Source: a virus (Duplodnaviria; Heunggongvirae; Uroviricota; Caudoviricetes). Taken from it: DNA of 13,284 nucleotides. This document shows positions 1-13,284 of the stretch, one piece after another; the stretch's first letter is position 1, and each line of letters opens with the position of its first letter. The notes under the pieces are model-generated. The model searched no databases, was not told the DNA's origin, and worked only from the letters and a program-made list of their open reading frames with translations. The stretch lies in IMG/VR virus record IMGVR_UViG_2609460221_000004, one strand, 5' to 3'. Made by a program: the position numbers and the translations under genes.

Positions 1-364
1 GGTTTACGCGGTCGCCTGCGGCAACGGCTTTCCGGCTGATGGTCGTACGGACCTTTTTACCCCGGAGAACACCGGCAAGTCCCATAACCGCCATGAGGCG
101 CGCCACTGTACATCTGGCCACCCTGATTCCTTCCCGTAACAACTGACGCCAGACTTTACGCACACCGTACACCTGATGATTTTCATCGTATACGCGCTGT
201 ATCTCTCTCTTCAGCCAGTCATCGTGCTGCGCACGGGCACTGCGTTTATCCGGATGATGTCGCTGTTGCTGACAATGGTAATACGTTGACGGGGCAATAT
301 GCAGTTCGCTGCATACCGGTCCGACCCCGTACTGCTCACGCAGCTTATCCAGCAGTGGCATCAT
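1..364 (-). CDS. IS3-family transposase OrfB (DDE catalytic subunit), N-terminal 121 codons only; 3' part lies beyond the window start
   Basis: My manual minus-strand translation from 364 downward gives [121 protein letters not shown], open to position 2. The ORF track did not list it because it has no stop inside the window. Confidence 0.8.
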
Positions 365-687
365 TTTTTCCAGAGGCGGTCGAACTCCGCCTTCGCAAAA
401 TAAGCGGAAGCCTGGCGAAGGATATCGTTACTGCGGCGCAGTTCACGATTTTCACGTTCCAGCTCTTTCAGACGCTGACGTTCAGCGCTGGTGAGCCCAC
501 CATCACCGCCCCCGGTATCCCGCTCATGCTGGCGAACCCAGACACGCAGAGTCTCCGGCGTACAGCCAATCTTTGGGGCAATGGAACAAATTGCCGCCCA
601 CTGTGAGTCATATTCATCCTGACTTTCCAGAACCATACGGACTGCCCGTTGACGGACTTCGGGGGAAAAACGAGTATTTTTAGTCAT
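361..687 (-). CDS. IS3-family transposase OrfA (helix-turn-helix DNA-binding subunit), 108 aa
   Basis: ORF-track translation [30 protein letters not shown]...[36 protein letters not shown] has the leucine-zipper-like C-terminus and is near-identical to IS629 OrfA as I recall it. Its stop TGA overlaps the orfB ATG. Confidence 0.85.
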
Positions 688-716
688 CCTGTTTACCTCT
701 TTCTCAGGAAGTTTAG

Positions 717-741
717 TCTCCAGGATTCCCGGGGCGGTTCA
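717..741 (-). repeat. Terminal inverted repeat of the IS element (outer end, about 25 bp; exact length not determinable without the other end)
   Basis: Reverse complement of 717-741 begins 5'-TGAACCGCCCCGGGAATCCTGGAGA; it sits 53 nt upstream of the orfA start, consistent with IS629 geometry as I remember it. Confidence 0.55.
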
Positions 742-1342
742 ATATTCTTCATGTTGCCCGCGTTCCATTGCTGGTGGCCTACGGGCTGGACAGGAATGAA
801 GAACTGACGGTTGGTGCATCCACCGCTACGATTTTTGAGGACAGAACAAAAAATGGCCTCGAATATGTTGAACATAGTGGCGCAGCGATAGAATCTGGCG
901 AAACATCACTTGAGAAGCTGGAAAATCAGATGCGTCATGCCGGCGCTAAACTTCTGCGTGCTGAAAATACATCCACCAAATCTGTTGATCAGACTAATGA
1001 AGAGCGAATGCAGGAAAACTCGCCGCTTTATACAATGGCGAACTCCCTCGAAGATGCCCTCGATAATATTCTCCAGATAATGGCGGAATGGATCGGAGAG
1101 AGTTGCGGTGGCAATGTGGATGTGCGCACTGAACTGGATGTATCTGCCAGGTGTTTGACTCATCCTCCGCGCTGGCTGTTCAGTCATTGCGTCAGGGCGG
1201 TGATATACGTCAGATTGATGCGGTTCGGGTGTTGCAGGCGTTGAAATTTATCGATCAGGATTCCCGTCCAGAGGAAGTGATCGATGAATTAAAAAATCAG
1301 AGTGTAATGCTGATGGAAATCAATGATGCAAACCGTGAATGA
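742..1342 (+). pseudogene. 3' remnant of the gene upstream of head morphogenesis (portal-like by position), truncated by the IS insertion and carrying an internal frame change
   Basis: The reading frame is open right up to the IS boundary at 742, so the IS sits inside an ORF. Frame 0 (768-1244) and frame 2 (1151-1342) both look protein-like, and the frame-2 stop TGA overlaps the next gene's start region. The portal assignment rests on gene order (portal, then gp7/F-like, then scaffold, then capsid), not on recognised motifs. Confidence 0.4.
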
Positions 1343-2438
1343 ACGGCTGCGTGATGAATCAATTGCTCATGCAGTCTGGATATCCCGCTATAGCACTGGC
1401 GTGGCTGCCAGAATGGTGAAAATACTGAATGACAGCGATGCGGAACTTACTGCTCGCCTGCTGATAGCACTGGACAGCCTCGATCCAGGTAGTTTTACCG
1501 TTAAGCGCCTGGAGTCACTTCTGGCGAGCGTCAGAGAGGTTAACCGCACTGCTATTAACAGCATGTTTACCAGTCTCTCCGGAGAGCTGAACGAGCTGGC
1601 AATTTATGAGGCTGGTTATCAGTTAAGTCTGTTTGATTCTATGCTACCTGATTTTGTTGCTGATGTTCACCCTCTGGTTGGTATCTCTCCTGATGCACTT
1701 TATGCCGCTGCAATGGCGCGACCATTCCAGGGACGACTGCTCAGTGAGTGGGCCTCAGATCTTGAAGCGGATCGGCTCAGACGCATAACAAATACAGTGC
1801 GTCAGGGTTTTTTGCTGGGGGATACCAATGAGCAGATCGCAAGAAAAATTCGGGGACATGTCAGTAAGGGATTTCAGGATGGTGCATTGCAGATGAGCCG
1901 GGCTAATGCGGCCAGCATTGCAAAAACAGCGGTTGGACATCTTGCTGCTACTGCCCGTGAGAGTTTTGCCAGCGCGAATAATGATTTGATTAAGGGTAAG
2001 CAATGGTTATCAACGCTTGATAATCGTACTACGCCACAATGTCGAATCAGGGATCGCCTCAAATATACGCTGAATAATAAACCTGTAGGTCACAGCGTGC
2101 CTTATTTGCAGGGGCCGGGAAAAATTCATTTCTGCTGCCGCTCAACGGAAACGTTCATTCTGAAATCAGCGAAGGAACTGGGTATTGATGTTCGCGATAT
2201 TTCCCCGGCTGAGCGGGCCAGCATGGATGGCGTGGTGGCCGGAGATACAACCTACAGGGAATGGTTTTTGCGTCAGCCTTACACCAGACAAAAACAGATT
2301 GTGGGGGAAACCCGAGCAAAGCTGATTCGGGATGGTGGTATGTCGCCAGATGAATTTTACACCGATAAAGGCGAATGGCTGACGCTGAAGCAGCTCCGTG
2401 AGCGTGATGCACAGGTATTCAGAAAAGCAGGGATTTAA
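1323..2438 (+). CDS. Phage head morphogenesis protein (SPP1 gp7 / Mu F-like family), 371 aa
   Basis: Size, position immediately after the portal-like gene, and overall resemblance to Mu F-like minor head proteins. The start overlaps the end of the upstream remnant. Family assignment is from memory. Confidence 0.55.
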   Translation: MMQTVNERLRDESIAHAVWISRYSTGVAARMVKILNDSDAELTARLLIALDSLDPGSFTVKRLESLLASVREVNRTAINSMFTSLSGELNELAIYEAGYQLSLFDSMLPDFVADVHPLVGISPDALYAAAMARPFQGRLLSEWASDLEADRLRRITNTVRQGFLLGDTNEQIARKIRGHVSKGFQDGALQMSRANAASIAKTAVGHLAATARESFASANNDLIKGKQWLSTLDNRTTPQCRIRDRLKYTLNNKPVGHSVPYLQGPGKIHFCCRSTETFILKSAKELGIDVRDISPAERASMDGVVAGDTTYREWFLRQPYTRQKQIVGETRAKLIRDGGMSPDEFYTDKGEWLTLKQLRERDAQVFRKAGI

Positions 2439-2458
2439 ATAAATCATTTATTACAACA

Positions 2459-2486
2459 GGCTACCTTCGGGTGGCCNTTTTTTATT
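2459..2486 (+). terminator. Putative intrinsic terminator after the head morphogenesis gene
   Basis: GGCTACC-TTCG-GGTGGCC stem (one G-U wobble) with a UUCG tetraloop, followed by N + TTTTTTATT, 21 nt after the stop. Confidence 0.5.
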
Positions 2487-2543
2487 GCTGCGATCCGGAT
2501 GGTGAGCAGCGTAACTGTCGGAAGACTTAAACCAGGTACTAAT

Positions 2544-3309
2544 ATGAAACTGAAAACGGTCGAGATTAACGGAAAACAATACGCAGAAATTGATACTGCT
2601 GGCCTGCCAGTTTATGTGCACGACGATGGTAAAGAAATTGGCTTCGATGCACCGCTGGCGACNAAAAAAANTTACAGAGCTTAATGGCGAGGCAAAAAAT
2701 CATCGCCTGGCTAAAGAAGCTGCAGAGGAAAAACTGGCTAAGTTTGCCGCTATCGAAGACCCGAAGAAGGCGATCGAGGCACTGGAAATGCTGTCAAAAA
2801 TCGACCAGAAAAAGCTGCTCGATGCGGGACAGGTTGACCAGGTTAAGGCAGAAATTACGAAAAATTTTCAGCAGCAATTAGATGAAGAAAAGCAACGCTC
2901 TCAGATGCTGGAGAAGCAGCTTTACGATTCTATGATTGGCGGTAGTTTTGCGGGTTCAAAATATATTGCCGATAAAATTGCGATCCCGGCAGATTTATTA
3001 CAAGCCCGCTTCGGGCAGGCATTCAAAGTGGAAGAAGGGAGGATCGTTGCTTATGACGCTTCCGGCAACAAAATTTATTCCCGCGCGAAGCCTGGCGAAC
3101 TGGCGCAGTTTGATGAGGCGCTGGAGTTCCTTGTCGAAAATTACCCTCAGAAAGACTACATCCTGAAAGCCAGTGGCAACAATGGCGGCGGCTCCCGTCC
3201 GACACAGCATGATATTGGTCAGAAAACGATGAAACGCTCTGCTTTTGATGCACTGGATGTTGCAGGTAAGCAAAACGCATTGAAAGACGGTATCACAATC
3301 GTTGATTAA
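2544..3309 (+). CDS. Putative head scaffolding protein; apparent +1 frame change at an N-flanked A-run (2663-2671)
   Basis: ATG at 2544 with AGGT 6 nt upstream. The N-terminus MKLKTVEINGKQYAEIDTAGLPVYVHDDGKEIGFDAPLA continues after the acNaaaaaaaNt tract in the next frame as TELNGEAKNHRLAKEAAEEKLAKF... The protein is charged and helical (coiled-coil-like) and sits between the morphogenesis and capsid genes. Confidence 0.5.
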
Positions 3310-3407
3310 CACATTTGTCAGCTTCCGGATGGGAGCTGGTGTCAGGGCTGGATAGCTCATTACTCCATCTATTCACAATTACGCAAATTTTTAAGGAATA
3401 TTTAATT

Positions 3408-4548
3408 ATGGCTGGAAATACCCTGACCGGGTTGATCCCGACTATTTATACCGCCCTGGATGTTGTATCCCGTGAGCAGGTAGGTTTTATCCCTGCGGTA
3501 GCAAAAAACGCAAAAGCTGACGCCGCAGCAAAAGATCAGACGGTAACCGCGCCAGTTGCGCCTGAGGCGAAAACCGAAGATATCGTACCGGGGCCGTCAG
3601 CTCCGAATACCGGTGATCAAAATATTGGCACTGTTGATGTAAAAATTACTAAATCCAAAATGGCACCGGTTAAATGGAATGGTGAAGAACAACTGGCTCT
3701 TGGCCCTTCAGGGACTTACAACACCATTCTGGCTGATCAGTTCAAGCAGGCTTTTCGCGCCCTTGCAAACGAGGTTGAGGCTGATCTTGGTGCGTTGTAT
3801 TTCGGTGCTTCCCGCGCCGTGGGAACCGCAGGGACAACGCCGTTTGGTGTTAAAGATGATCTTTCTGATGCTGCTCTGGCTCGTCAGGTTCTGGAGGATA
3901 ACGGCGCACCGACAACCGATCTGCAGATGGTGCTTGGCTCCACTGCCATTGCTAATTTGCGCGGAAAACAGTCTGTATTGTTTAAAGTGAATGAATCCGG
4001 CACTGAACAGCTACTGCGTGAGGGCGTGTTGGGGCGTCTGGAGGGATTCAATATTCACAGTTCGGCAGGTGTGAAACGAGCGCCAAAGGTTGCTGCAACT
4101 GGTTATCTCGTGAATGGAGAGNAAAAAAGAAGGCGATGTTCTTATTTCCATTGATACTGGTTCGGGGTGTATTTCTGCAGGTCAGATTGTTACGTTCGCT
4201 GGTGATCCGAATCAGTATGTTGTGGCAGCAGCGACCAGCAATCTGATTACTCTTGCAGCGCCCGGACTGCGTCAGGATCTGGCCGATGATACTGCCATCA
4301 CAGTTGTTGGGGCCTTTACTGCAAATATGGCGTTTGATCGCAACGCGTTTCTGCTGGCATCCCGTACTCCGGCAATGCCGGAAGGTGGCGATAATGCTGA
4401 TGATGTAATGAATGTTACGGACCCGATTTCAGGGATTACGTTCCAGATTGCACTGTATCGTCAGTATCGCCAGGTGCGCTATGAAGTTGGACTGGCATGG
4501 GGTGTTTCATCAGTGAAGCCGGCACATGGTTGTCTGATTCTTGGTTAA
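3408..4548 (+). CDS. Putative major capsid protein (about 380 aa if the frame is repaired); apparent +1 frame change at gagNaaaaaag (4122-4128)
   Basis: ATG at 3408 with AAGGA about 10 nt upstream. The two ORF-track pieces (3315-4154 and 4114-4548) join seamlessly as ...YLVNGE(K)KKEGDVLISIDTG... A strong terminator follows. Size and position fit a major capsid gene. Confidence 0.55.
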
Positions 4549-4558
4549 ACATTCAAAC

Positions 4559-4581
4559 GGGGCTTCGGCCCCATTTTTAAT
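4559..4581 (+). terminator. Putative intrinsic terminator after the capsid gene
   Basis: GGGGC-TTCG-GCCCC perfect 5-bp GC stem with a UUCG tetraloop, followed by ATTTTTAAT, 11 nt after the capsid stop. Confidence 0.6.
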
Positions 4582-4590
4582 GGGGGGCAT

Positions 4591-4767
4591 ATGGCCGGAT
4601 TAACTAAAGAGCAAAGAGCACAGCGTGAAGCCGCACAAAAAACGCAAATTGAGTTAGTGGTTATGGTGACCGATTATCAGATGTTTCCCGGCGCACCAAC
4701 TATCGCTAATGTTCATCCTGATGAAGTTGACAACTGGAAGGCTATGGGCTGGAAAACTCAGGAGTAA
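4591..4767 (+). CDS. Small hypothetical protein (58 aa), below the ORF track's length cutoff
   Basis: ATG at 4591 preceded by GGGGGG 3-8 nt upstream. My manual translation is MAGLTKEQRAQREAAQKTQIELVVMVTDYQMFPGAPTIANVHPDEVDNWKAMGWKTQE, with stop TAA at 4765-4767. It fills the gap between the capsid terminator and the next gene, whose RBS lies in its 3' end. Confidence 0.35.
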   Translation: MAGLTKEQRAQREAAQKTQIELVVMVTDYQMFPGAPTIANVHPDEVDNWKAMGWKTQE

Positions 4768-4770
4768 CAC

Positions 4771-5166
4771 ATGATNACTTACGTGACCTGTGATGACGTT
4801 GATAATGCGTTTGGGAACGCCTGGACGAGTGAGAACGCTAAAAATAAAGCTGTTTTAATGGCTAATGCCTGGCTTAATGGCTTCAACCTGAAAATTAACC
4901 CATCCCGTATTCCGGAAGAGGTAAAACTTGCGGGAGCATATGCAGCCAGAATTGCCTCATTCGGTAAGTTGTTTCAGCAGAAAAATGATTCTGGCGTTGT
5001 TATCAGTAAAGCCGTGTCGGCTGACGGGGTCAGTGTATCGAAATCATTTTCTGAGTTGCCAGCAAACAGCACTGCATTGCTTGAACCCGATTTACAGCTT
5101 GCGATAGCACTGCTGAAACCGTACGGACTTAGTCGCTCACAAGTCAGGGTTGTGAGGGGGGGATAA
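4771..5166 (+). CDS. Putative head-tail connector / head completion protein (131 aa)
   Basis: ATG at 4771 with AGGAG 7 nt upstream. First of four similar-sized, translationally coupled small genes between capsid and major tail. There is an N at 4776 in codon 2. Confidence 0.45.
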   Translation: MXTYVTCDDVDNAFGNAWTSENAKNKAVLMANAWLNGFNLKINPSRIPEEVKLAGAYAARIASFGKLFQQKNDSGVVISKAVSADGVSVSKSFSELPANSTALLEPDLQLAIALLKPYGLSRSQVRVVRGG

Positions 5167-5549
5167 TGGGGCTTCGTGAAGAGATTCAGTCAGAGGTTGC
5201 CGCTGCTTTTGATGAGGATTTAGCGGACGCCGTGAGTGATTTTTCTGGTTCTTACGTTACGCACCGGCACTGGGATCCTGTGACGGAAACTGGCGGCGAA
5301 TCCACCGCAATCTATACCGGGCGAGGCGTGTTGACACGTTATAAGCTGGGCAGAATTGATGGGATTAATATTTTGCATGGTGACCTTAAATTAACCGCTC
5401 TGGTATGCGAGGTTACGGATAAACCAGCTGTCGACCATATTATTGAGATTTATGATCCTGTATCAAGGCAGTTACAACGATACGAGGTAATTACAGCAAG
5501 TGTAGATCCTTCCGCATCAGTTTACTCTATCCAGTTAAGGAGAGCGTAA
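5166..5549 (+). CDS. Putative head-tail adaptor / head closure protein (127 aa)
   Basis: TAATG stop-start overlap with the upstream gene; role assigned from position in the head-tail joining module. Confidence 0.4.
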   Translation: MGLREEIQSEVAAAFDEDLADAVSDFSGSYVTHRHWDPVTETGGESTAIYTGRGVLTRYKLGRIDGINILHGDLKLTALVCEVTDKPAVDHIIEIYDPVSRQLQRYEVITASVDPSASVYSIQLRRA

Positions 5550-5930
5550 ATGGCAAAGGCATGGGATATAGAACCGTCAATATTTGCCGGGATGATTGAG
5601 GAAGATGTAGGGCTGAAGATTCGCTACATCGCTATTCAGATTCTTACTGCTATTGATATTGCTGCTCCGGTTGATACCGGACGTTTCAGAAATAACAACC
5701 TGGTGTCGTTACAGCATCCCGATTTTGGTATATCTGATAACGTGGATCCGAACGGTACGATTGCTGTTCAGCGTGGGATCGGGGTTATTTCGAAAGCTGC
5801 AAATTACGGGGTTATTTATATCCAGAATAACCTTCCTTATGCAGAGGCTCTTGAAAACGGTCATTCACAACAAGCGCCAACTGGCGTGTATGCCAACGCT
5901 TTTCATGGTGTTTTACAGGCTTACAAATGA
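5550..5930 (+). CDS. HK97 gp10-like tail/neck component (126 aa)
   Basis: Contains PVDTGRFRNN, which matches the conserved DTGxLRxS-type motif of the HK97 gp10 family as I recall it. AAGGAG RBS; start abuts the upstream stop. Confidence 0.5.
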   Translation: MAKAWDIEPSIFAGMIEEDVGLKIRYIAIQILTAIDIAAPVDTGRFRNNNLVSLQHPDFGISDNVDPNGTIAVQRGIGVISKAANYGVIYIQNNLPYAEALENGHSQQAPTGVYANAFHGVLQAYK

Positions 5931-6319
5931 AGTTTACTGAAATCAGAAATACGGTTATTTCCAGAATGACGGCACAGACGATTATTGATGGAAAAGACGT
6001 ATTGTATCCGAACGGGCCAACGTTCGATCCTTCCGGTAAGTTAATCTGGGCGCGGTTAAGTAATATTCCCGGGCAAGCTGGAGTTAATGAAATTGGCGCG
6101 GGGCCGGTTGTTTATCGCACGGGGATAATCATTATTCAGTTATTTGTCCCCGCAGGTTCTGGTTCAAAACTCATTACTGAGACAGCCGATAAATTGCGGG
6201 AACTGTTTGAGTTTCAGGATGACGATCGTCTCAGTTACCAGGCTGTTTCCTCAATAGCCGTCGGCGAAAAGAATGGCTGGTTCCAGCTTAATCTTCAAAT
6301 TCCATATCGCGCGCTCTAG
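5927..6319 (+). CDS. Putative tail terminator / tail-tube junction protein (130 aa)
   Basis: ATGA overlap with the upstream gene; last small gene before the major tail gene (same position as lambda U). Confidence 0.4.
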   Translation: MKFTEIRNTVISRMTAQTIIDGKDVLYPNGPTFDPSGKLIWARLSNIPGQAGVNEIGAGPVVYRTGIIIIQLFVPAGSGSKLITETADKLRELFEFQDDDRLSYQAVSSIAVGEKNGWFQLNLQIPYRAL

Positions 6320-6345
6320 CGCAATTAATGACATAGGAGGCTCCT

Positions 6346-7296
6346 GTGAGTTCAGGTGCAAAGGTTATCTCGGCATTTATCCGGGAGACAGTTGCAGGCA
6401 CTACGCCAGCAAGTGGTGACTGGAGTTTATTAAAACGCACAAGCTGGGGAGTAAAACCCACCCAGAATAAAGGCGAAAATAATGAGATTGGTGGCTCCCG
6501 GATGGCTCAGGGGGCGACGCCTGGCACTGTGGATGTCGGCGGTGATGTTGGTACCAAATTTCGCTGGGGTCAACATGATGATTTTCTTGCATCCTGTTTC
6601 GGCGCGGAATGGTCAGGCGATTCTCTGACAATGGGGAATGAGCGAATAACATTTTCTCTGGCGACCTATGCGTCCGATGTCGGAATTGCCTCTGTCGTCA
6701 GAGGAGCGCAGGTTGGCTCATGGAAAATGCAGATCCCTAACGACGGCGATATTACAGCGACCGTAACCTTTGCCGGGCTGGGCTGGGAATCAAAGGCCGA
6801 TGATACGAATTTTATCAAAGGCGAACCTGTGGATAGTGCAGGAAAGTTACGCTATTCGTTTAAGGCGGTTTCAGCAGTAAGCCTGAATGGTGTTGCCGGA
6901 GGTAACGGTTTTTGTATCGACAGTTTTGATATTCAGTTCGATAACAAACTCCAGACACAGCGTTGTATCGGGACCGGCTCGCCTTATGCAGGAGCAAATA
7001 TTCCGACTACTTTTACACCGTCCGGTACGGTGACGCTTTCATGGTCTAAAGCCGCGTGGGAAATCTGGAGTAAAACACTGACTGGAGAAACAGTTCCGTT
7101 CAGCTTCACGCTTTCGAATGGAGAGGGGGCATACACTTTCAGTTTCCCGAAGGTTCAGGTGTCAGGTGAATGGCCTGATGGGGGTAATACTGACATTATC
7201 CAGGTTCAATTGAGCATTACCGCAGCAGATGAAGCACCTACGATAACCAGNAAAAAAATGCTCCCCGACTGCCGTGATCGCAAAAGCCAGTGCTGA
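6346..7296 (+). CDS. Major tail (tube) protein, lambda V analogue; C-terminus uncertain because of an N at 7251 before an A7 run
   Basis: GTG start at 6346 with AGGAGG 5 nt upstream. 316 aa, Gly/Thr/Ser-rich and beta-rich, directly upstream of the chaperone genes. Repairing the frame at the A-run gives an alternative end ...KKCSPTAVIAKASADAIS at about 7315. Confidence 0.55.
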   Translation: MSSGAKVISAFIRETVAGTTPASGDWSLLKRTSWGVKPTQNKGENNEIGGSRMAQGATPGTVDVGGDVGTKFRWGQHDDFLASCFGAEWSGDSLTMGNERITFSLATYASDVGIASVVRGAQVGSWKMQIPNDGDITATVTFAGLGWESKADDTNFIKGEPVDSAGKLRYSFKAVSAVSLNGVAGGNGFCIDSFDIQFDNKLQTQRCIGTGSPYAGANIPTTFTPSGTVTLSWSKAAWEIWSKTLTGETVPFSFTLSNGEGAYTFSFPKVQVSGEWPDGGNTDIIQVQLSITAADEAPTITXKKMLPDCRDRKSQC

Positions 7297-7321
7297 TGCG
7301 ATTAGTTGATTTTCCGTTATT

Positions 7322-7348
7322 CCCCCTGTGGTACTGCACTACAGGGGG
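7322..7348. other. GC-rich hairpin between the major tail and chaperone genes
   Basis: CCCCCTGT (7322-7329) pairs with ACAGGGGG (7341-7348) around an 11-nt loop; no U-tract follows. Confidence 0.4.
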
Positions 7349-7369
7349 ACGCATTGAATGAGGTTATGG

Positions 7370-7819
7370 ATGTTTATTCTTAATCAGAAAATTATCATCG
7401 GTGGAGAACGCTGGTTTACGCCAATGAAGGACTTAAAACCTATAGACGGGTTAAAACTGTTGGTGGCAAGCAGCGATAACGATCAGTATCGCTCCCGTAA
7501 TGCATTAATCCGTCGTCACATTGAGAAAATGGATGCCAGTTTGCACGTCGGAACGAAGGAGTTTGATATTTCAAAGGTTTCCGAGGTAGATTCTGTTGAT
7601 GATTTACTCATTGATAATGCTGCTCGTTATCTGCTGAAAGACTGGAAAGGGGTTGGTGAACTGGTTAATGGTGCTGAGGTTGCACTGGAATATACGCCAG
7701 AACGAGGGATCGCGCTGCTTAAGCAGAATCCAGAGTTGTACTGGCAGATCCTTGCAGAAGCAGCCAGCATCGCCCAGGGTAAAGAGCAGCAGAAGCAGGA
7801 TACGATAAAAAAGCCATAG
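7370..7819 (+). CDS. Tail assembly chaperone, lambda G analogue
   Basis: ATG at 7370 with GAGG 6 nt upstream (an alternative ATG is at 7358). Acidic about 150-aa protein between the major tail and tape measure genes, ending ...QDTIKKP with the slippery site A_AAA_AAG in frame. Confidence 0.6.
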   Translation: MFILNQKIIIGGERWFTPMKDLKPIDGLKLLVASSDNDQYRSRNALIRRHIEKMDASLHVGTKEFDISKVSEVDSVDDLLIDNAARYLLKDWKGVGELVNGAEVALEYTPERGIALLKQNPELYWQILAEAASIAQGKEQQKQDTIKKP

Positions 7820-8127
7820 CCGCCCAGCGGTGGTTATCGGAGTTCGGGGGAGAAAGGGGGGAAAAGGCAAGATGGAAGCGAGAAAAACTCAGGTTGCCAC
7901 CGATACCGGAACCAGAAATAGACCCGGTGCTTAAGGAATTGTTGTACGCCTATTCGGTAATATCCCGTGCCCGACGTTATGCTGGAATGACCGGGGTGCC
8001 TTTGCCTTTATCTCTGACAGAGATAAATGAATATTTAGCCACTCATCCGGTATTGATTGAGCGCGATGAGTTTGAAGCAGTGATCTTTGCACTGGATGAC
8101 CAGTATTTTCAGGAGCAGTGTGTGTAG
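7370..8127 (+). CDS. Tail assembly chaperone G-T fusion, lambda GT analogue, made by a -1 frameshift at 7807-7813
   Basis: The -1 frame is open with no stop from 7813 through the ORF-track 7894-8127 ORF (frame 1, versus frame 2 for G). Read-through gives ...KKAIAAQRWLSEFGGERGEKARWKREKLRLPPIPEPEIDPVLKELLYAY... Confidence 0.55.
7807..7813 (+). promoter_or_regulatory. Putative -1 programmed ribosomal frameshift heptamer A_AAA_AAG
   Basis: In the G frame the codons are AUA AAA AAG CCA UAG; the X_XXY_YYZ heptamer is the same as the dnaX slip site and lies 4 nt before the G stop. Confidence 0.55.
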
Positions 8128-8250
8128 TTGTTAATTACGTACACTCTGTTACAGAGATGTGATGGTGTCTTTAATTAAATCGATGATGCTCCTGGAGAAA
8201 AGCATTGCGTGGCCTCGTAATCGCTATATCTACTATTATGTCGCCTGAAA

Positions 8251-8274
8251 CCCACTTCGGTGGGCTTTTTGTTG
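8251..8274 (+). terminator. Putative intrinsic terminator directly upstream of the tape measure gene
   Basis: CCCAC-TTCG-GTGGG stem with a UUCG tetraloop, followed by CTTTTTGTTG; it ends about 17 nt before the tape measure start. Confidence 0.5.
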
Positions 8275-8290
8275 TCTGGAGTTTTAATAA

Positions 8291-11200
8291 ATGGCAGAGC
8301 AAACCTCGCGTCTCGCAATAATTATTGATAGCACTGGAGCAAAAAATAATGCTGACAATCTGACCTCCTCATTAGTCAAAATGACGCAGGCCGGGGAAAC
8401 TGCTGCAAATAGCGCAGGGAAAGTGACTAAGGCAACAGAAGATGAGAAGAACGCGCTCGCAAAATTAAAAGCAGCTATTGATCCAGTTGGTGCCGCAATT
8501 GATACTGTCGGTCGACGCTATTCTGAATTAAAGAAATTTTTCGATAAAGGGATTATTGATAAAGAAGAATATGAATTTCTTGTCCGTAAACTTAATGAAA
8601 CCACAGAGGAATTGAGCGGGGTTGCGCAAGCGCAGAGAGAAGCCGAGAAGGCCGGAAAACTTGCTGCCGCCCAGCAGGAAGCGCAGACTCAGGCCTTTCA
8701 AAGAATGCTGGACAAGATCGACCCTCTGGCTGCGGCGCTAAGAAATCTTGAACAACAGCAGGATGAACTTAATGCTGCGTTTGCATCCGGGAAAATAAAT
8801 GGTTCTCAGTTTGAGAATTATAGCCGAAAAATACAGGAAACACGGCGAGAGCTTACCGGAGAGGCTCAGGCAGAGCGAGAAGCAGCAAAAGCGCATGATG
8901 AACAGGTTGCTGCTTTGCAACGTCTGATTGCTCAACTTGACCCTGTCGGAACTGCTTTTAATCGTCTGGTAGAACAACAGAAACAGCTCAATGAAGCAAA
9001 AGCTAAGGGGATGCTCTCTCCTGAAATGTATGAGGAACTTTCTGGAAAACTTCGTGCTATGCGGAGTGAGCTTGAGGTTACTCAATCTCAATTAAGCAAA
9101 ACCGGAATGTCGGCAAAACAAACGGCTTTTGCTATGCGCATGTTGCCTGCACAAATGACGGATATTGTTGTTGGGTTGTCCACTGGTCAGTCGCCTTTTA
9201 TGGTGTTAATGCAGCAGGGCGGCCAGCTAAAAGATATGTTCGGTGGGATTGGCCCGGCGATCAAAGGTGTTGGTTCTTATGTGCTGGGATTAATTAATCC
9301 TTTTACCCTGGCCGCAGCAGCCGTTGGCGTCTTAGGGCTGGCTTACTATAAAGGCTCTCAGGAGCAGGACGAATTTAATAAGTCTCTTATTCTTACCGGA
9401 AATCAGTTGGGGACAACCAGCGGGCAATTGGNCGATATAGTTCAACGTGCCGGGAATGCGGCTGATTCGACAACTGGCGCTGCGGCGGCAGTATTAAACC
9501 AGCTTGTGCGTTCGGGAAAGGTAGCGAGCAGTTCGCTGGAGCAAGTGACGACAGCGATAGTAAAAACGAGCGAAGTAACAGGAATATCAACCGAACAACT
9601 GGTTAATGACTTCAATGAAATTGCAAAGGATCCTGTCAGTGCCATATCAAAACTTAATGATCAGTACCATTTTCTGACAATTGCGACTTATAACCAGATT
9701 AAGGCGCTACAGGATGAAGGGAACCAGCAGGAGGCCGCCCGCATTGCGACAGAAGCATACTCATCCTCAATGATCCAGCGCACCAACCAGATTAAAGAAA
9801 ATCTTGGTTATCTTGAGACTGCATGGAAAGCTGTCGCAGACTCCGCAAAATGGGCATGGGATTCCATGCTGGATATTGGCCGTGAGGCCTCCCTTGATCA
9901 AAAAATCTCAGATGTTCTCCGTCAAATTGATGAAATAGAAAAAAATACCCGACCCGGAGTTTTCGGGTTAGGTGGCATTGGAGATGGCGGAGCTCAAAAT
10001 AAAAGGCTGGCACGATTAAAGCAGCAATTGGGCGTACTTCAAGCAGAAAAAATTGCTCAGGACGTACTAAATTCATCAATAAACGATTACAACAAGCGAC
10101 AACAGGAAGGAATTGAACTCAGACAGAGAGCAGATGCCTTTTCAAAACAATATCAGACCCGGGAGCAGCAGAGAGCTAGTGAACTTGCAAAACTGGAAAA
10201 ACTAAAGAGTCAGTATTCAAAGGAAGAATATAATAATCTTATCGCTCAAATAAATGAGCGTTATAAAGGTCCAAAGCAACCAAAGGCGAAAGGTTATTCG
10301 GATGATGCTGCCCAACGAATGATTGATCATCTGAATCAACAGAATGCGTTACTAAGTTCACAAACTGAATTAACCGTTAAATTAAGTTCCTCTGAACAGG
10401 AACTGGTTAAGTGGCGTCAGCAGATTGCCGACCTGGAGTCACGACCGTCATCGAAATTAACCAAGGATCAGAAATCGCTTCTCTTACACCGGGAAGAAAT
10501 AACCGCGTTGATGGAGAAAAATGTTGCGATTGAAAAAAATAACAGGCTAATCAAGGAATCCGCCGAAATAGCTGCATGGCGTGATTCATTGCAGGCTTCG
10601 ATTGATAATCGTCAACAGGGGTATGATATTCAGATTGCTGGTTATGGGGTTGGCGATAAAAATCAGCAACGCCAGCAGGAATTACTGCGGATTGAACGTG
10701 AATATAACAATCAGCGTCTGCAACTTGAACGTGACTATGCAGATAAATCCCGTGGGATGTCAAATCATGTTTTTCAGGAGAAAATGCAGGCTCTGAATGA
10801 TGCTCTGGAACGAGAAAAAGAAATTGTCAGACAGAAAAACGAGCAGCTCGATATTCAGGCAGGAGACTGGGTTAGTGGTGCCTCCCAGGGATTCAATAAC
10901 TGGCTGGATGACACTAAGGATATCAGTGAGCAGATAAAATCAACCACGACTCAGATGTTTGATGGAATGACCGATGCGCTGGGTGATTTTGTCACGACAG
11001 GCAAAGCAAATTTTCGTTCTTTCGCTACTTCCGTGATTTCGGATCTTAGTCGAATAGCATTAAAGGCTTCAATTACTGGGATTTTCGACAGCATTAGTAA
11101 CAGTTCTTCTGGGGGGATTTTAGGAACTATCGGGAGTGCTATTAGTAAATTTATTCCGAATGCAAAGGGCGGTGTTTATGAGTCTCCGTCATTGAACACG

Positions 11201-11524
11201 TATTCGAACGGTATTTATGATTCCCCGCAATTTTTTGCTTTTGCAAGAGGGGCTGGTGTTTTTGGTGAGGCTGGTCCGGAAGCCATTATGCCATTAACAC
11301 GAACTTCCGATGGTTCTCTTGGTGTCAGAGCTATTAATAGTAAAAGTGGTAATGGAGGCGGAGATATTACCTATGCCCCTGTATACCAAATCACTATTCA
11401 AAATGACGGCCAGAATGGAGAGATTGGNCCTCAGGCAATAAAAGCACTTATGGGGATGGTTGATCAGCGGGTGCAGGGCAATCTGTTAAATATGCGACGT
11501 GATGGGGGAATGTTAAGTGGCTAA
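8291..11524 (+). CDS. Tail tape measure protein, lambda H-like, 1077 aa
   Basis: GGAG RBS 9 nt upstream. Long coiled-coil N-terminus, then the hydrophobic core [41 protein letters not shown]...SLILTGNQ, which matches lambda H ([40 protein letters not shown]) as I remember it. The C-terminus ...[16 protein letters not shown]...RRDGGMLSG matches lambda H's NNDGTNGQIGPAALKAV...MRDGGLFSG. Confidence 0.85.
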
Positions 11525-11856
11525 TACGGAAGAATTTCACTGGTTACCAGAGGATGGAATGAAAACAGAAAATAAACCATCGATAAAAACTGTAAGATTT
11601 GGCGATGGTTATGAGCAACGAAGTCCAAATGGACTTAATCATTCTCTGCGCGTTTTCACCTGTGATTTCAAAGTTGAGGCGAATGAACGTGATTCATTTG
11701 AAAAATTTTTAGCCCGGCATGAAGGCTATAAATCTTTTTTTTTGGCGCCCGCCGGGTATTAACAGAAAAATCAGAGTGGTGTGTCGAACGTGGTCAGCGA
11801 CAGAACATATCACCTATACCGATTTTTCGTGTCAGTTTGACGAAGTGGTGATCTGA
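11517..11856 (+). CDS. M: Minor tail protein M homologue; reading frame broken at a T9 run (11735-11743)
   Basis: N-terminal part ...FHWLPEDGMKTENKPSIKTVRFGDGYEQRSPNGLN...FLARHEGYKSFF aligns with lambda M (FRWKVKPGMDV...VRKVRFGDGYSQ...). With T8 instead of T9 the frame continues WRPPGINRKIRVVCRTWSATEHITYTDFSCQFDEVVI to a TGA overlapping the L start. Confidence 0.7.
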
Positions 11857-12554
11857 TGCAGGACATACAACAGGAAACGCTGAATGAATGCATTCGTGCG
11901 GAGCAGTCGGCCAGCGTGGTGCTCTGGGAAATCGACCTGACCGAGGTAGGCGGGGATCGCTACTTTTTCTGTAATGAGCAGAACGAAAAAGGTGAGTCTG
12001 TCACCTGGCAGAGTCGGCAGTATCAGGCCTATCCCATTCANGGGAGTGGATTTGAGATGAACGGCAAGGGCAGTGCTGNCCGTCCGACACTGACGGTCTC
12101 TAACCTGCACGGCATGATCACCGGGATGGCGGAAGATCTGCAGAGTCTGGTCGGCGGAACGGTGGTCCGGCGTAAGGTTTACGCCCGCTTTCTGGATGCG
12201 GTGAACTTCGTCAACGGAAACAGCGAAGCCGATCCGGAGCAGGAGGTGATCAGCCGCTGGCGCATCGAGCAGTGCAGCGAACTGAGCGCGGTCAGTGCCT
12301 CTTTTGTACTGTCCACGCCGACTGAAACGGATGGCGCTGTTTTTCCGGGACGTATCATGCTGGCCAACACCTGCACCTGGACCTATCGCGGCGATGAGTG
12401 CGGTTATAGCGGTCCGGCGGTCGCGGATGAATATGACCAGCCGACGTCCGATATCACGAAGGATAAATGCAGCAAATGCCTGAGTGGCTGTAAGTTTCGC
12501 AATAATGTCGGCAACTTTGGCAGCTTCCTTTCCATTAACAAACTTTCGCAGTAA
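11856..12554 (+). CDS. L: Minor tail protein L homologue (232 aa)
   Basis: MQDIQQETLNECIRAEQSASVVLWEIDLTEVGGDRYFFCNEQNEKGE...CTWTYRGDECGYSGP...CSKCLSGCKFRNNVGNFG is near-identical to lambda gpL as I recall it, including the C-terminal cysteine cluster. Two N calls (12051, 12079) are inside. Confidence 0.85.
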   Translation: MQDIQQETLNECIRAEQSASVVLWEIDLTEVGGDRYFFCNEQNEKGESVTWQSRQYQAYPIXGSGFEMNGKGSAXRPTLTVSNLHGMITGMAEDLQSLVGGTVVRRKVYARFLDAVNFVNGNSEADPEQEVISRWRIEQCSELSAVSASFVLSTPTETDGAVFPGRIMLANTCTWTYRGDECGYSGPAVADEYDQPTSDITKDKCSKCLSGCKFRNNVGNFGSFLSINKLSQ

Positions 12555-12559
12555 ATCCC

Positions 12560-13284
12560 ATGACAGAGACAGAATCAGCGATTCTGGCGCACGCCCGGCG
12601 ATGTGCGCCAGCGGAGTCGTGCGGCTTCGTGGTGAGAACGCCGGAGGAGGAAAGATATTTTCCCTGCGTGAATATCTCCGGTGAGCCGGAGGAGTATTTC
12701 CGGATGTCGCCGGAGGACTGGCTGAGTGCAGAAATGCAGGGAGAGATTGTGGCGCTGGTCCACAGCCACCCCGGTGGTCTGCCCTGGCTGAGTGAGGCCG
12801 ACCGGCGGCTGCAGGTACAGAGTGATTTGCCGTGGTGGCTGGTCTGCCGGGGGGCGATTCATAAATTCCGCTGTGTGCCGCATCTCACCGGGCGGCGCTT
12901 TGAGCACGGGGTAACGGACTGTTACACGCTGTTCCGGGACGCTTACCATCTGGCGGGAATTGAGATGCCGGATTTTCATCGCGGGGATGACTGGTGGCGT
13001 AACGGTCAGAATCTCTATCTGGATAATCTGGAGGCCACAGGGCTGTATCAGGTGCCGTTGTCAGCGGCGCAGCCGGGCGATGTGCTGCTGTGCTGTTTTG
13101 GTTCATCGGTGCCGAATCATGCCGCCATTTACTGTGGTGACAGCGAGCTGCTGCACCATATTCCTGAACAACTGAGCAAACGAGAGAGGTACACCGACAA
13201 ATGGCAGCGACGCACACACTCCCTCTGGCGTCACCGGGCATGGCACGCATCTGCCTTTACGGGGATTTACAACGATTTTGGCCG
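12560..13284 (+). CDS. K: Tail assembly protein K homologue (MPN/JAMM + NlpC/P60 domains), partial; 3' end beyond the window
   Basis: ATG at 12560. My manual translation is MTETESAILAHARRCAPAESCGFVV...ALVHSHPGGLPWLSEADRR (JAMM-type HxH...S..D motif) ...HGVTDCYTLFRDAYHLAG (NlpC/P60-type Cys) ...NHAAIYCGD..., near-identical to lambda gpK as I recall it. It is open to the window end, which is why the ORF track does not list it. Confidence 0.85.
   Translation, partial: MTETESAILAHARRCAPAESCGFVVRTPEEERYFPCVNISGEPEEYFRMSPEDWLSAEMQGEIVALVHSHPGGLPWLSEADRRLQVQSDLPWWLVCRGAIHKFRCVPHLTGRRFEHGVTDCYTLFRDAYHLAGIEMPDFHRGDDWWRNGQNLYLDNLEATGLYQVPLSAAQPGDVLLCCFGSSVPNHAAIYCGDSELLHHIPEQLSKRERYTDKWQRRTHSLWRHRAWHASAFTGIYNDFG

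Follow-up and report, generated by a model that had tools for sequence, protein, structure and literature searches.

The question raised by this locus is which gene was interrupted where an insertion sequence meets the structural genes of a prophage, and whether that prophage could still form virions. The window analyzed here is a stretch of 13,284 nucleotides from a tailed-phage record in IMG/VR (IMGVR_UViG_2609460221_000004), which begins within an IS3 family element and passes into phage genes read on the plus strand. We consider it highly probable that an IS629 insertion split the portal gene of a Rac-type prophage and that this prophage should be non-productive. Coordinates of the relevant features are given in Table 1.

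Table 1. Features of the window around the insertion junction, and further insertions of the same type of element in the head module of related prophages.
Sequence	Feature	Position	Strand	Remarks
Window	IRL-proximal 741 bp of the 1310-bp IS629 isoform (IS3 family)	1-741	-	window begins within the element
Window	5' part of IS orfB (DDE/rve transposase)	1-364 (upper boundary approximate)	-	frame open to the left edge of the window
Window	ALIL pseudoknot	290-406	-	Rfam RF01497, 121.5 bits vs gathering score 50, E 1.8e-32
Window	IS orfA, 108 aa, HTH transposase N-terminal part	361-687	-	ORF; Pfam HTH_Tnp_1, E 1.7e-12
Window	Left terminal inverted repeat (IRL) TGAACCGCCCCGGGAATCCTGGAGA	717-741	-	23/25 positions match IRR (direct comparison of ends)
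Window	ATA, right-hand copy of the target-site duplication	742-744	.	comparison of L001 with L002
Window	Portal gene 3' remnant, codons 270-468 of 468	742-1342	+	C-run at 1147 is 1 bp shorter and shifts the frame
Window	Mu F-like minor head / head morphogenesis gene, intact	1323-2438	+	Pfam Phage_Mu_F, E 1.3e-8; PHROG_241, E 2.9e-183
L003 (E28, E09, WP7-S18-ESBL-09)	IS inside Mu F gene	3986-5295		duplication ACC; IS identical to L001 copy
L004 (GDSC2239PM)	IS between DUF6651 and capsid genes	5614-6923		duplication GAT; IS with 43 differences vs L001
L005 (CH459)	IS at portal codon ~47	2432-3741		duplication GAA; IS with 22 differences vs L001

The terminus of the element (...CCCGGGGCGGTTCA) stops exactly at position 741; window 1-741 closes with ...CCAGGATTCCCGGGGCGGTTCA, which on the minus strand is the left end of an element of the IS3 family. 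Window 1-741 is identical to positions 12001-12741 of a prophage locus (L001) in the complete genome of Escherichia coli WP4-W18-ESBL-09 (NZ_AP022069), where the complete element is 1310 bp long and occupies positions 11432-12741. Its TG...CA ends (TGAACCGCCCCGGG.../...CCCGGGGCGGTTCA) are imperfect repeats, of which only the IRL lies within the window, and the IRR end begins TGAACCGCCCCGGGTTTCCTGGAGAG.... Membership in IS629 was judged by full-length nucleotide identity of at least 95% to a reference IS629, for which the annotated copy in LC567824 served; the 95% isoform criterion is ISfinder practice. The 1310-bp element has 98.1% identity over positions 1-1310 to LC567824 51315-52624, and this match coincides exactly with a mobile_element annotated as 'insertion sequence: IS3 family IS629' with 'IS629 transposase OrfA/OrfB'. 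Full-length matches to elements in Stx phages have 98.0-98.1% identity. The L001 copy also has the size (about 1.3 kb), the orfA/orfB frameshift layout and the 3-bp duplication of IS629. Its full orfB carries a Pfam rve domain (E 7.7e-28), and PGAP annotates it as an intact IS3 family transposase with a programmed frameshift; the ALIL pseudoknot stimulates the -1 programmed frameshift that fuses orfA and orfB. The initial annotation called the element 'IS629-like', and its identity to an annotated IS629, its ALIL pseudoknot and its orfA/orfB layout identify window 1-741 as part of an IS629 isoform. Elements of this group make 3-4 bp duplications, include the isoforms IS1203 and IS3411, and have subtypes that are 4-5% apart (PMC3271280).

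The element abuts a phage reading frame at 741/742, as first described, and the complete genome of WP4-W18-ESBL-09 has the same junction. The plus strand from position 744 reads ILHVARVPLLVAYGLDRNEELTVG..., which had been quoted correctly as the start of a frame open up to the junction; the phase of 742 assigned to that frame was wrong, the true phase being 744. The codon AAT (741-743) spans the junction, and the first stop upstream in this frame is a TAG at 714-716 within the IS. On the phage side, sequence of 99.9% identity resumes from window position 740 in hundreds of genomes without the IS. The remnant does not form one open frame to 1342 and is divided into ORFs at 768-1244 and 1151-1342 by a frame break at 1147, missed in the initial annotation, where the window reads CC and its relatives read CCC. 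Neither exact product of the frameshifted remnant (start TTG 768 or GTG 774) is on record.

The quality of the window bears on how this break is read. Ten Ns are present (2477, 2663, 2671, 4122, 4776, 7251, 9432, 11428, 12041, and 12079), nearly all of them at or in homopolymer runs. Compared with both complete relatives, the window has no private substitutions, and its only private differences are three single-base changes in homopolymer length, in the C-run at 1147 and the T-runs at 11735 and 13279. Together the Ns and indels break the frames of the portal remnant and of the capsid, tail-tube, gpM-like and gpK-like genes. Because the private differences are confined to homopolymer length and are accompanied by ten Ns, the frameshift at 1147 is probably a sequencing error, and real pseudogenization as the source of the three window frameshifts was rejected as the preferred reading on the same grounds. 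With sequence of this quality, fine-scale statements about the portal remnant are uncertain.

The split gene had been called portal-like by position, and homology points to the same function. The remnant piece 744-1146 matches PHROG_145 (portal; E 5.8e-43). The intact gene was taken from the uninterrupted relative, strain 7/2 (locus L002), where it is annotated at 5198-6604 with 468 codons, and residues 1-467 of its product match PHROG_145 'portal protein' with an E value of 1.8e-165. Against solved structures, the intact protein matches the portals 10ec_A ('Portal protein gp03'; E 6.6e-18, query 49-458), 11cq_A (E 7.2e-18), and 8xb5_A (E 1.7e-11), and these portal matches together span residues ~49-458. 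The only Pfam match is DUF4055 (residues 249-386), and the insertion, after residue 269, falls within the most conserved part of the protein. The gene order is TerS, TerL (Terminase_6N/6C), portal (DUF4055), Mu F-like protein, DUF6651 protein and P22-type major capsid, followed by adaptor, head closure, neck, tail terminator, tail tube, chaperones, tape measure and minor tail proteins, and the start of the Mu F-like gene overlaps the end of the portal gene. By its homology to solved portals over most of its length and its position between TerL and the head genes, we identify the split gene as a true portal gene. It resembles solved tailed-phage portals in full-length homology and in its place between TerL and a Mu F-like gene, and differs from them in being split, with 199 of the 468 codons held in the window. 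Further downstream, window 7358-8127 contains two ORFs between the tail tube and the tape measure, one matching a PHROG tail assembly chaperone (named 'YdaY' in relatives) and the other encoding a small uncharacterized protein; by analogy with lambda, where this is the position of G/GT, a programmed frameshift may link the two.

Window 1-2500 was compared by megablast with 5,426 complete E. coli genomes. The IS and the phage DNA occurred together in six of these, and the same junction was found in only one of the six, WP4-W18-ESBL-09, to which the entire window (1-13284) aligns in a single piece of 13,285 columns at 99.89% identity. In this genome the element is preceded by ...GGACAATA and followed by ATATTCTTC; over a longer stretch, the left flank is ...GAGCAGGACAATA, from the 5' half of the portal gene, and the right is ATATTCTTCATG.... 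Strain 7/2 reads ...GAGCAGGACAATATTCTTCATG... with a single ATA, the portal 5' flank expected before the IRR end being ...CAAAGCCAGAGCGAGCAGGACAATA and the uninterrupted site ...GGACAATATTCTTC.... The two L001 flanks match strain 7/2 at 100% and 99.96% and overlap by the 3-bp duplication. Directly beyond the other end of the IS lie the 5' 269 portal codons, and removal of the IS in silico restores an intact 468-codon portal gene with 100% identity. PGAP labels the two halves 'DUF4055 domain-containing protein, incomplete', around the 'IS3 family transposase, programmed frameshift'. Because ATA flanks the IS in L001 while strain 7/2 has one ATA, the event in L001, as judged from these alignments, is a simple insertion with a 3-bp duplication.

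The initial annotation had placed the 5' part of the gene beyond the element, and had proposed finding the other IS end and the target-site duplication and joining the flanks to recover a single portal ORF. Every part of that check gave the anticipated result in L001, the nearest relative, and the gene split is thereby confirmed by proxy, not from the window's own upstream DNA. The outcome that would have overturned the reading, a different frame beyond the other IS end, did not occur in L001. As the window stops inside the IS, only the right copy of the duplication is visible in it, and we infer that its own genome shares the left junction of L001.

The head module has been struck at other sites as well (Table 1), and the same region carries an ISVsa5-type element in MIN10. 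The four target sites of the IS629-type elements (duplications ATA, ACC, GAT and GAA) share no obvious sequence. A rough expectation, based on ~3.3 chromosomal copies per genome, a module of 4.6 kb in 5 Mb and 725 carrier genomes, is ~2 places vs 6 observed, which lies within the known bias of IS629 toward prophages; 62% of IS629 copies are carried by prophages (PMC3271280). The common orientation of the IS in these hits is an artefact of the search, which joins pieces on one strand. An insertion hot spot was rejected since there is no shared target sequence and the count lies within the known prophage bias. More broadly, it seems unlikely that the repeated independent hits (four or more sites among six genomes, and the ISVsa5 hit) reflect selection for disarming or a hot spot and not neutral decay; if they did, selection would remove virions while keeping the other genes of the prophage. 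As a separate observation, the best match to the IS in the phage collection is AF017626.1 731-2040 (98.4%), which lies under an annotated integrase gene in a phage 21 record and looks like another prophage gene interrupted by the same IS family.

An alternative history would be an IS-mediated deletion, inversion or IS-IS recombination, by which the window would mark the boundary of a remnant, the 5' half of the portal gene would be absent or not adjacent, and the terminase and lysis genes would perhaps be likewise displaced or absent. One junction is visible in the window, most genomes carry several IS629-family copies (median 3 places, maximum 52), and the far end of the L001 prophage abuts Qin-type genes (pinQ, ydfK, truncated ydfJ), so that the region does rearrange; however, the insertion is clean and flanked by a 3-bp duplication in the only complete genome with the junction, which has 99.9% identity to the window over 13.3 kb, and all four independent insertions examined in the module are simple and have 3-bp duplications. 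We give such a rearrangement quite a small chance and retain simple insertion into the portal gene as the explanation.

The L001 annotation also indicates which kind of prophage was hit. Outside the region covered by the window, the L001 prophage adjoins ttcA and carries intR, xisR, ralR, recE, recT, kilR, sieB, ydaT, ydaV, lysis genes and trkG, and thus has both the ttcA site and the intR/xisR, recET, kilR, sieB and trkG genes by which a Rac-type element was recognized. On this annotation, the prophage is a full-length Rac relative at ttcA and not an EHEC Stx phage. The enterohaemorrhagic E. coli and Shigella setting first suggested for the insertion does not fit, as the prophage is of Rac type at ttcA and the exact IS variant is common on plasmids of non-EHEC strains; identical copies (100%) occur widely on plasmids of E. 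coli from poultry, humans and the environment. The IS629 insertions in prophages of EHEC O157 (Sp/SpLE, Stx phages) are similar in that the same element family interrupts prophage genes, a recognized way in which prophages diversify and decay; here, in contrast, the target is a Rac-type prophage at ttcA in non-Stx backgrounds and the gene hit encodes the portal, not a regulatory or early function. The IS629 copies of O157 Stx phages are ~2% diverged from the present element.

Of the 5,426 complete E. coli genomes, 725 (~13%) contain the portal and Mu F region with at least 80% coverage and 96-100% identity, and the region is uninterrupted in 50 of the 52 full-coverage rows of a spread sample. 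K-12/BL21-type genomes have only short pieces of the query, beside ynaK. The Rac prophage of K-12 shares with the present element the ttcA site and the markers intR, xisR, ralR, recET, kilR, sieB, ydaT/V, trkG and ydaY, but it is without the terminase-to-head genes, whereas the present element keeps a full morphogenesis module and would be inactivated by one IS. The L001 copy has further lesions, namely frameshifts in the recT and tail-tube genes and partial tail-fibre genes; the window does not share the one in the tail-tube gene. In L001, trkG (4743-6200) and a ParB/Srx-domain gene (6338-7129) stand between the lysis genes and the gene for the small terminase, an odd site for cargo; K-12 Rac retains trkG and a fragment of the ParB gene (ynaK). 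At the other end of the prophage, in L007 5428-8637 (NZ_AP022069 2697427-2700636), the tail-fibre end abuts the Qin-type genes pinQ, ydfK, ynfT, and a truncated ydfJ, which suggests that the Rac and Qin prophage regions have recombined in WP4-W18-ESBL-09. The GenBank records named 'Escherichia phage vB_EcoS-...' that have an intact module are prophages predicted by PHASTER from draft genomes, and the record of 'Salmonella phage SPF_0923' starts in the lysis genes and carries trkG; none of the records retrieved documents an isolated virion. No relevant publication on full-length Rac phages was found in a literature search.

The proposed sequence of events begins with transposition of the 1310-bp IS629 isoform (IS3 family) into a full-length lambdoid prophage of Rac type. 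The element would have entered the portal gene after codon 269 of 468, antisense to the late genes of the phage, with duplication of 3 bp (ATA). The upstream fragment would then encode 269 portal residues and 53 IS-encoded residues before a stop, and the downstream fragment would hold the C-terminal 199 codons, predicted to be promoter-less and without a natural start. Scanned for terminator consensus on the phage sense strand, the IS has 2 terminator-like sites vs 1.7 expected, which is no excess and says little either way about expression of the downstream head and tail genes. The genes for lysis, terminase, capsid and tail are still in position. Tailed phages need the portal dodecamer for DNA packaging and for joining the head to the tail; without it there would be no packaging vertex and no head-tail connection, and for this reason no infectious particles are expected. 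The first suggestion that the prophage is defective is in keeping with this essential role of the portal, from which we infer the defect; the accompanying ideas that the prophage depends on a satellite relationship and that its tail module is still expressed are speculation.

The prophage might instead be conditionally productive, through precise excision of the IS in a subpopulation or a compatible portal supplied in trans. The flanks and duplication are perfect, so that precise excision could restore the ORF, and an IS-excision enhancer acting on IS3-family elements has been described in EHEC. Against this, the portal and Mu F genes matched one place only in the L001 genome, with no second portal copy detected at megablast sensitivity, and the interactions of portal, capsid and scaffold are generally phage-specific, which counts against supply in trans. 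We regard conditional production as very unlikely, and a prophage disabled by the portal insertion is the preferred outcome. An assembly artefact, in which the contig was mis-joined or extended into a repeated IS and the portal gene is really intact, might be suspected of a low-quality draft (ten Ns, homopolymer indels) that begins inside a repeat, but it is hardly credible given that an independent complete chromosome has base-for-base the same junction, which coincides exactly with the end of the IS, and that in L001 the expected duplication flanks the far end of the element.

The insertion is a routine inactivation of a prophage structural gene by an IS, of an already known kind, and RefSeq already has this junction annotated. 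For curators, it means that the prophage is best recorded as non-productive although it looks nearly complete, that the two DUF4055 fragments are one portal gene, and that the extra frameshifts in the window should be distrusted. For the biology of these prophages, it is one more case of IS629-type elements eroding prophages, with little significance beyond annotation.
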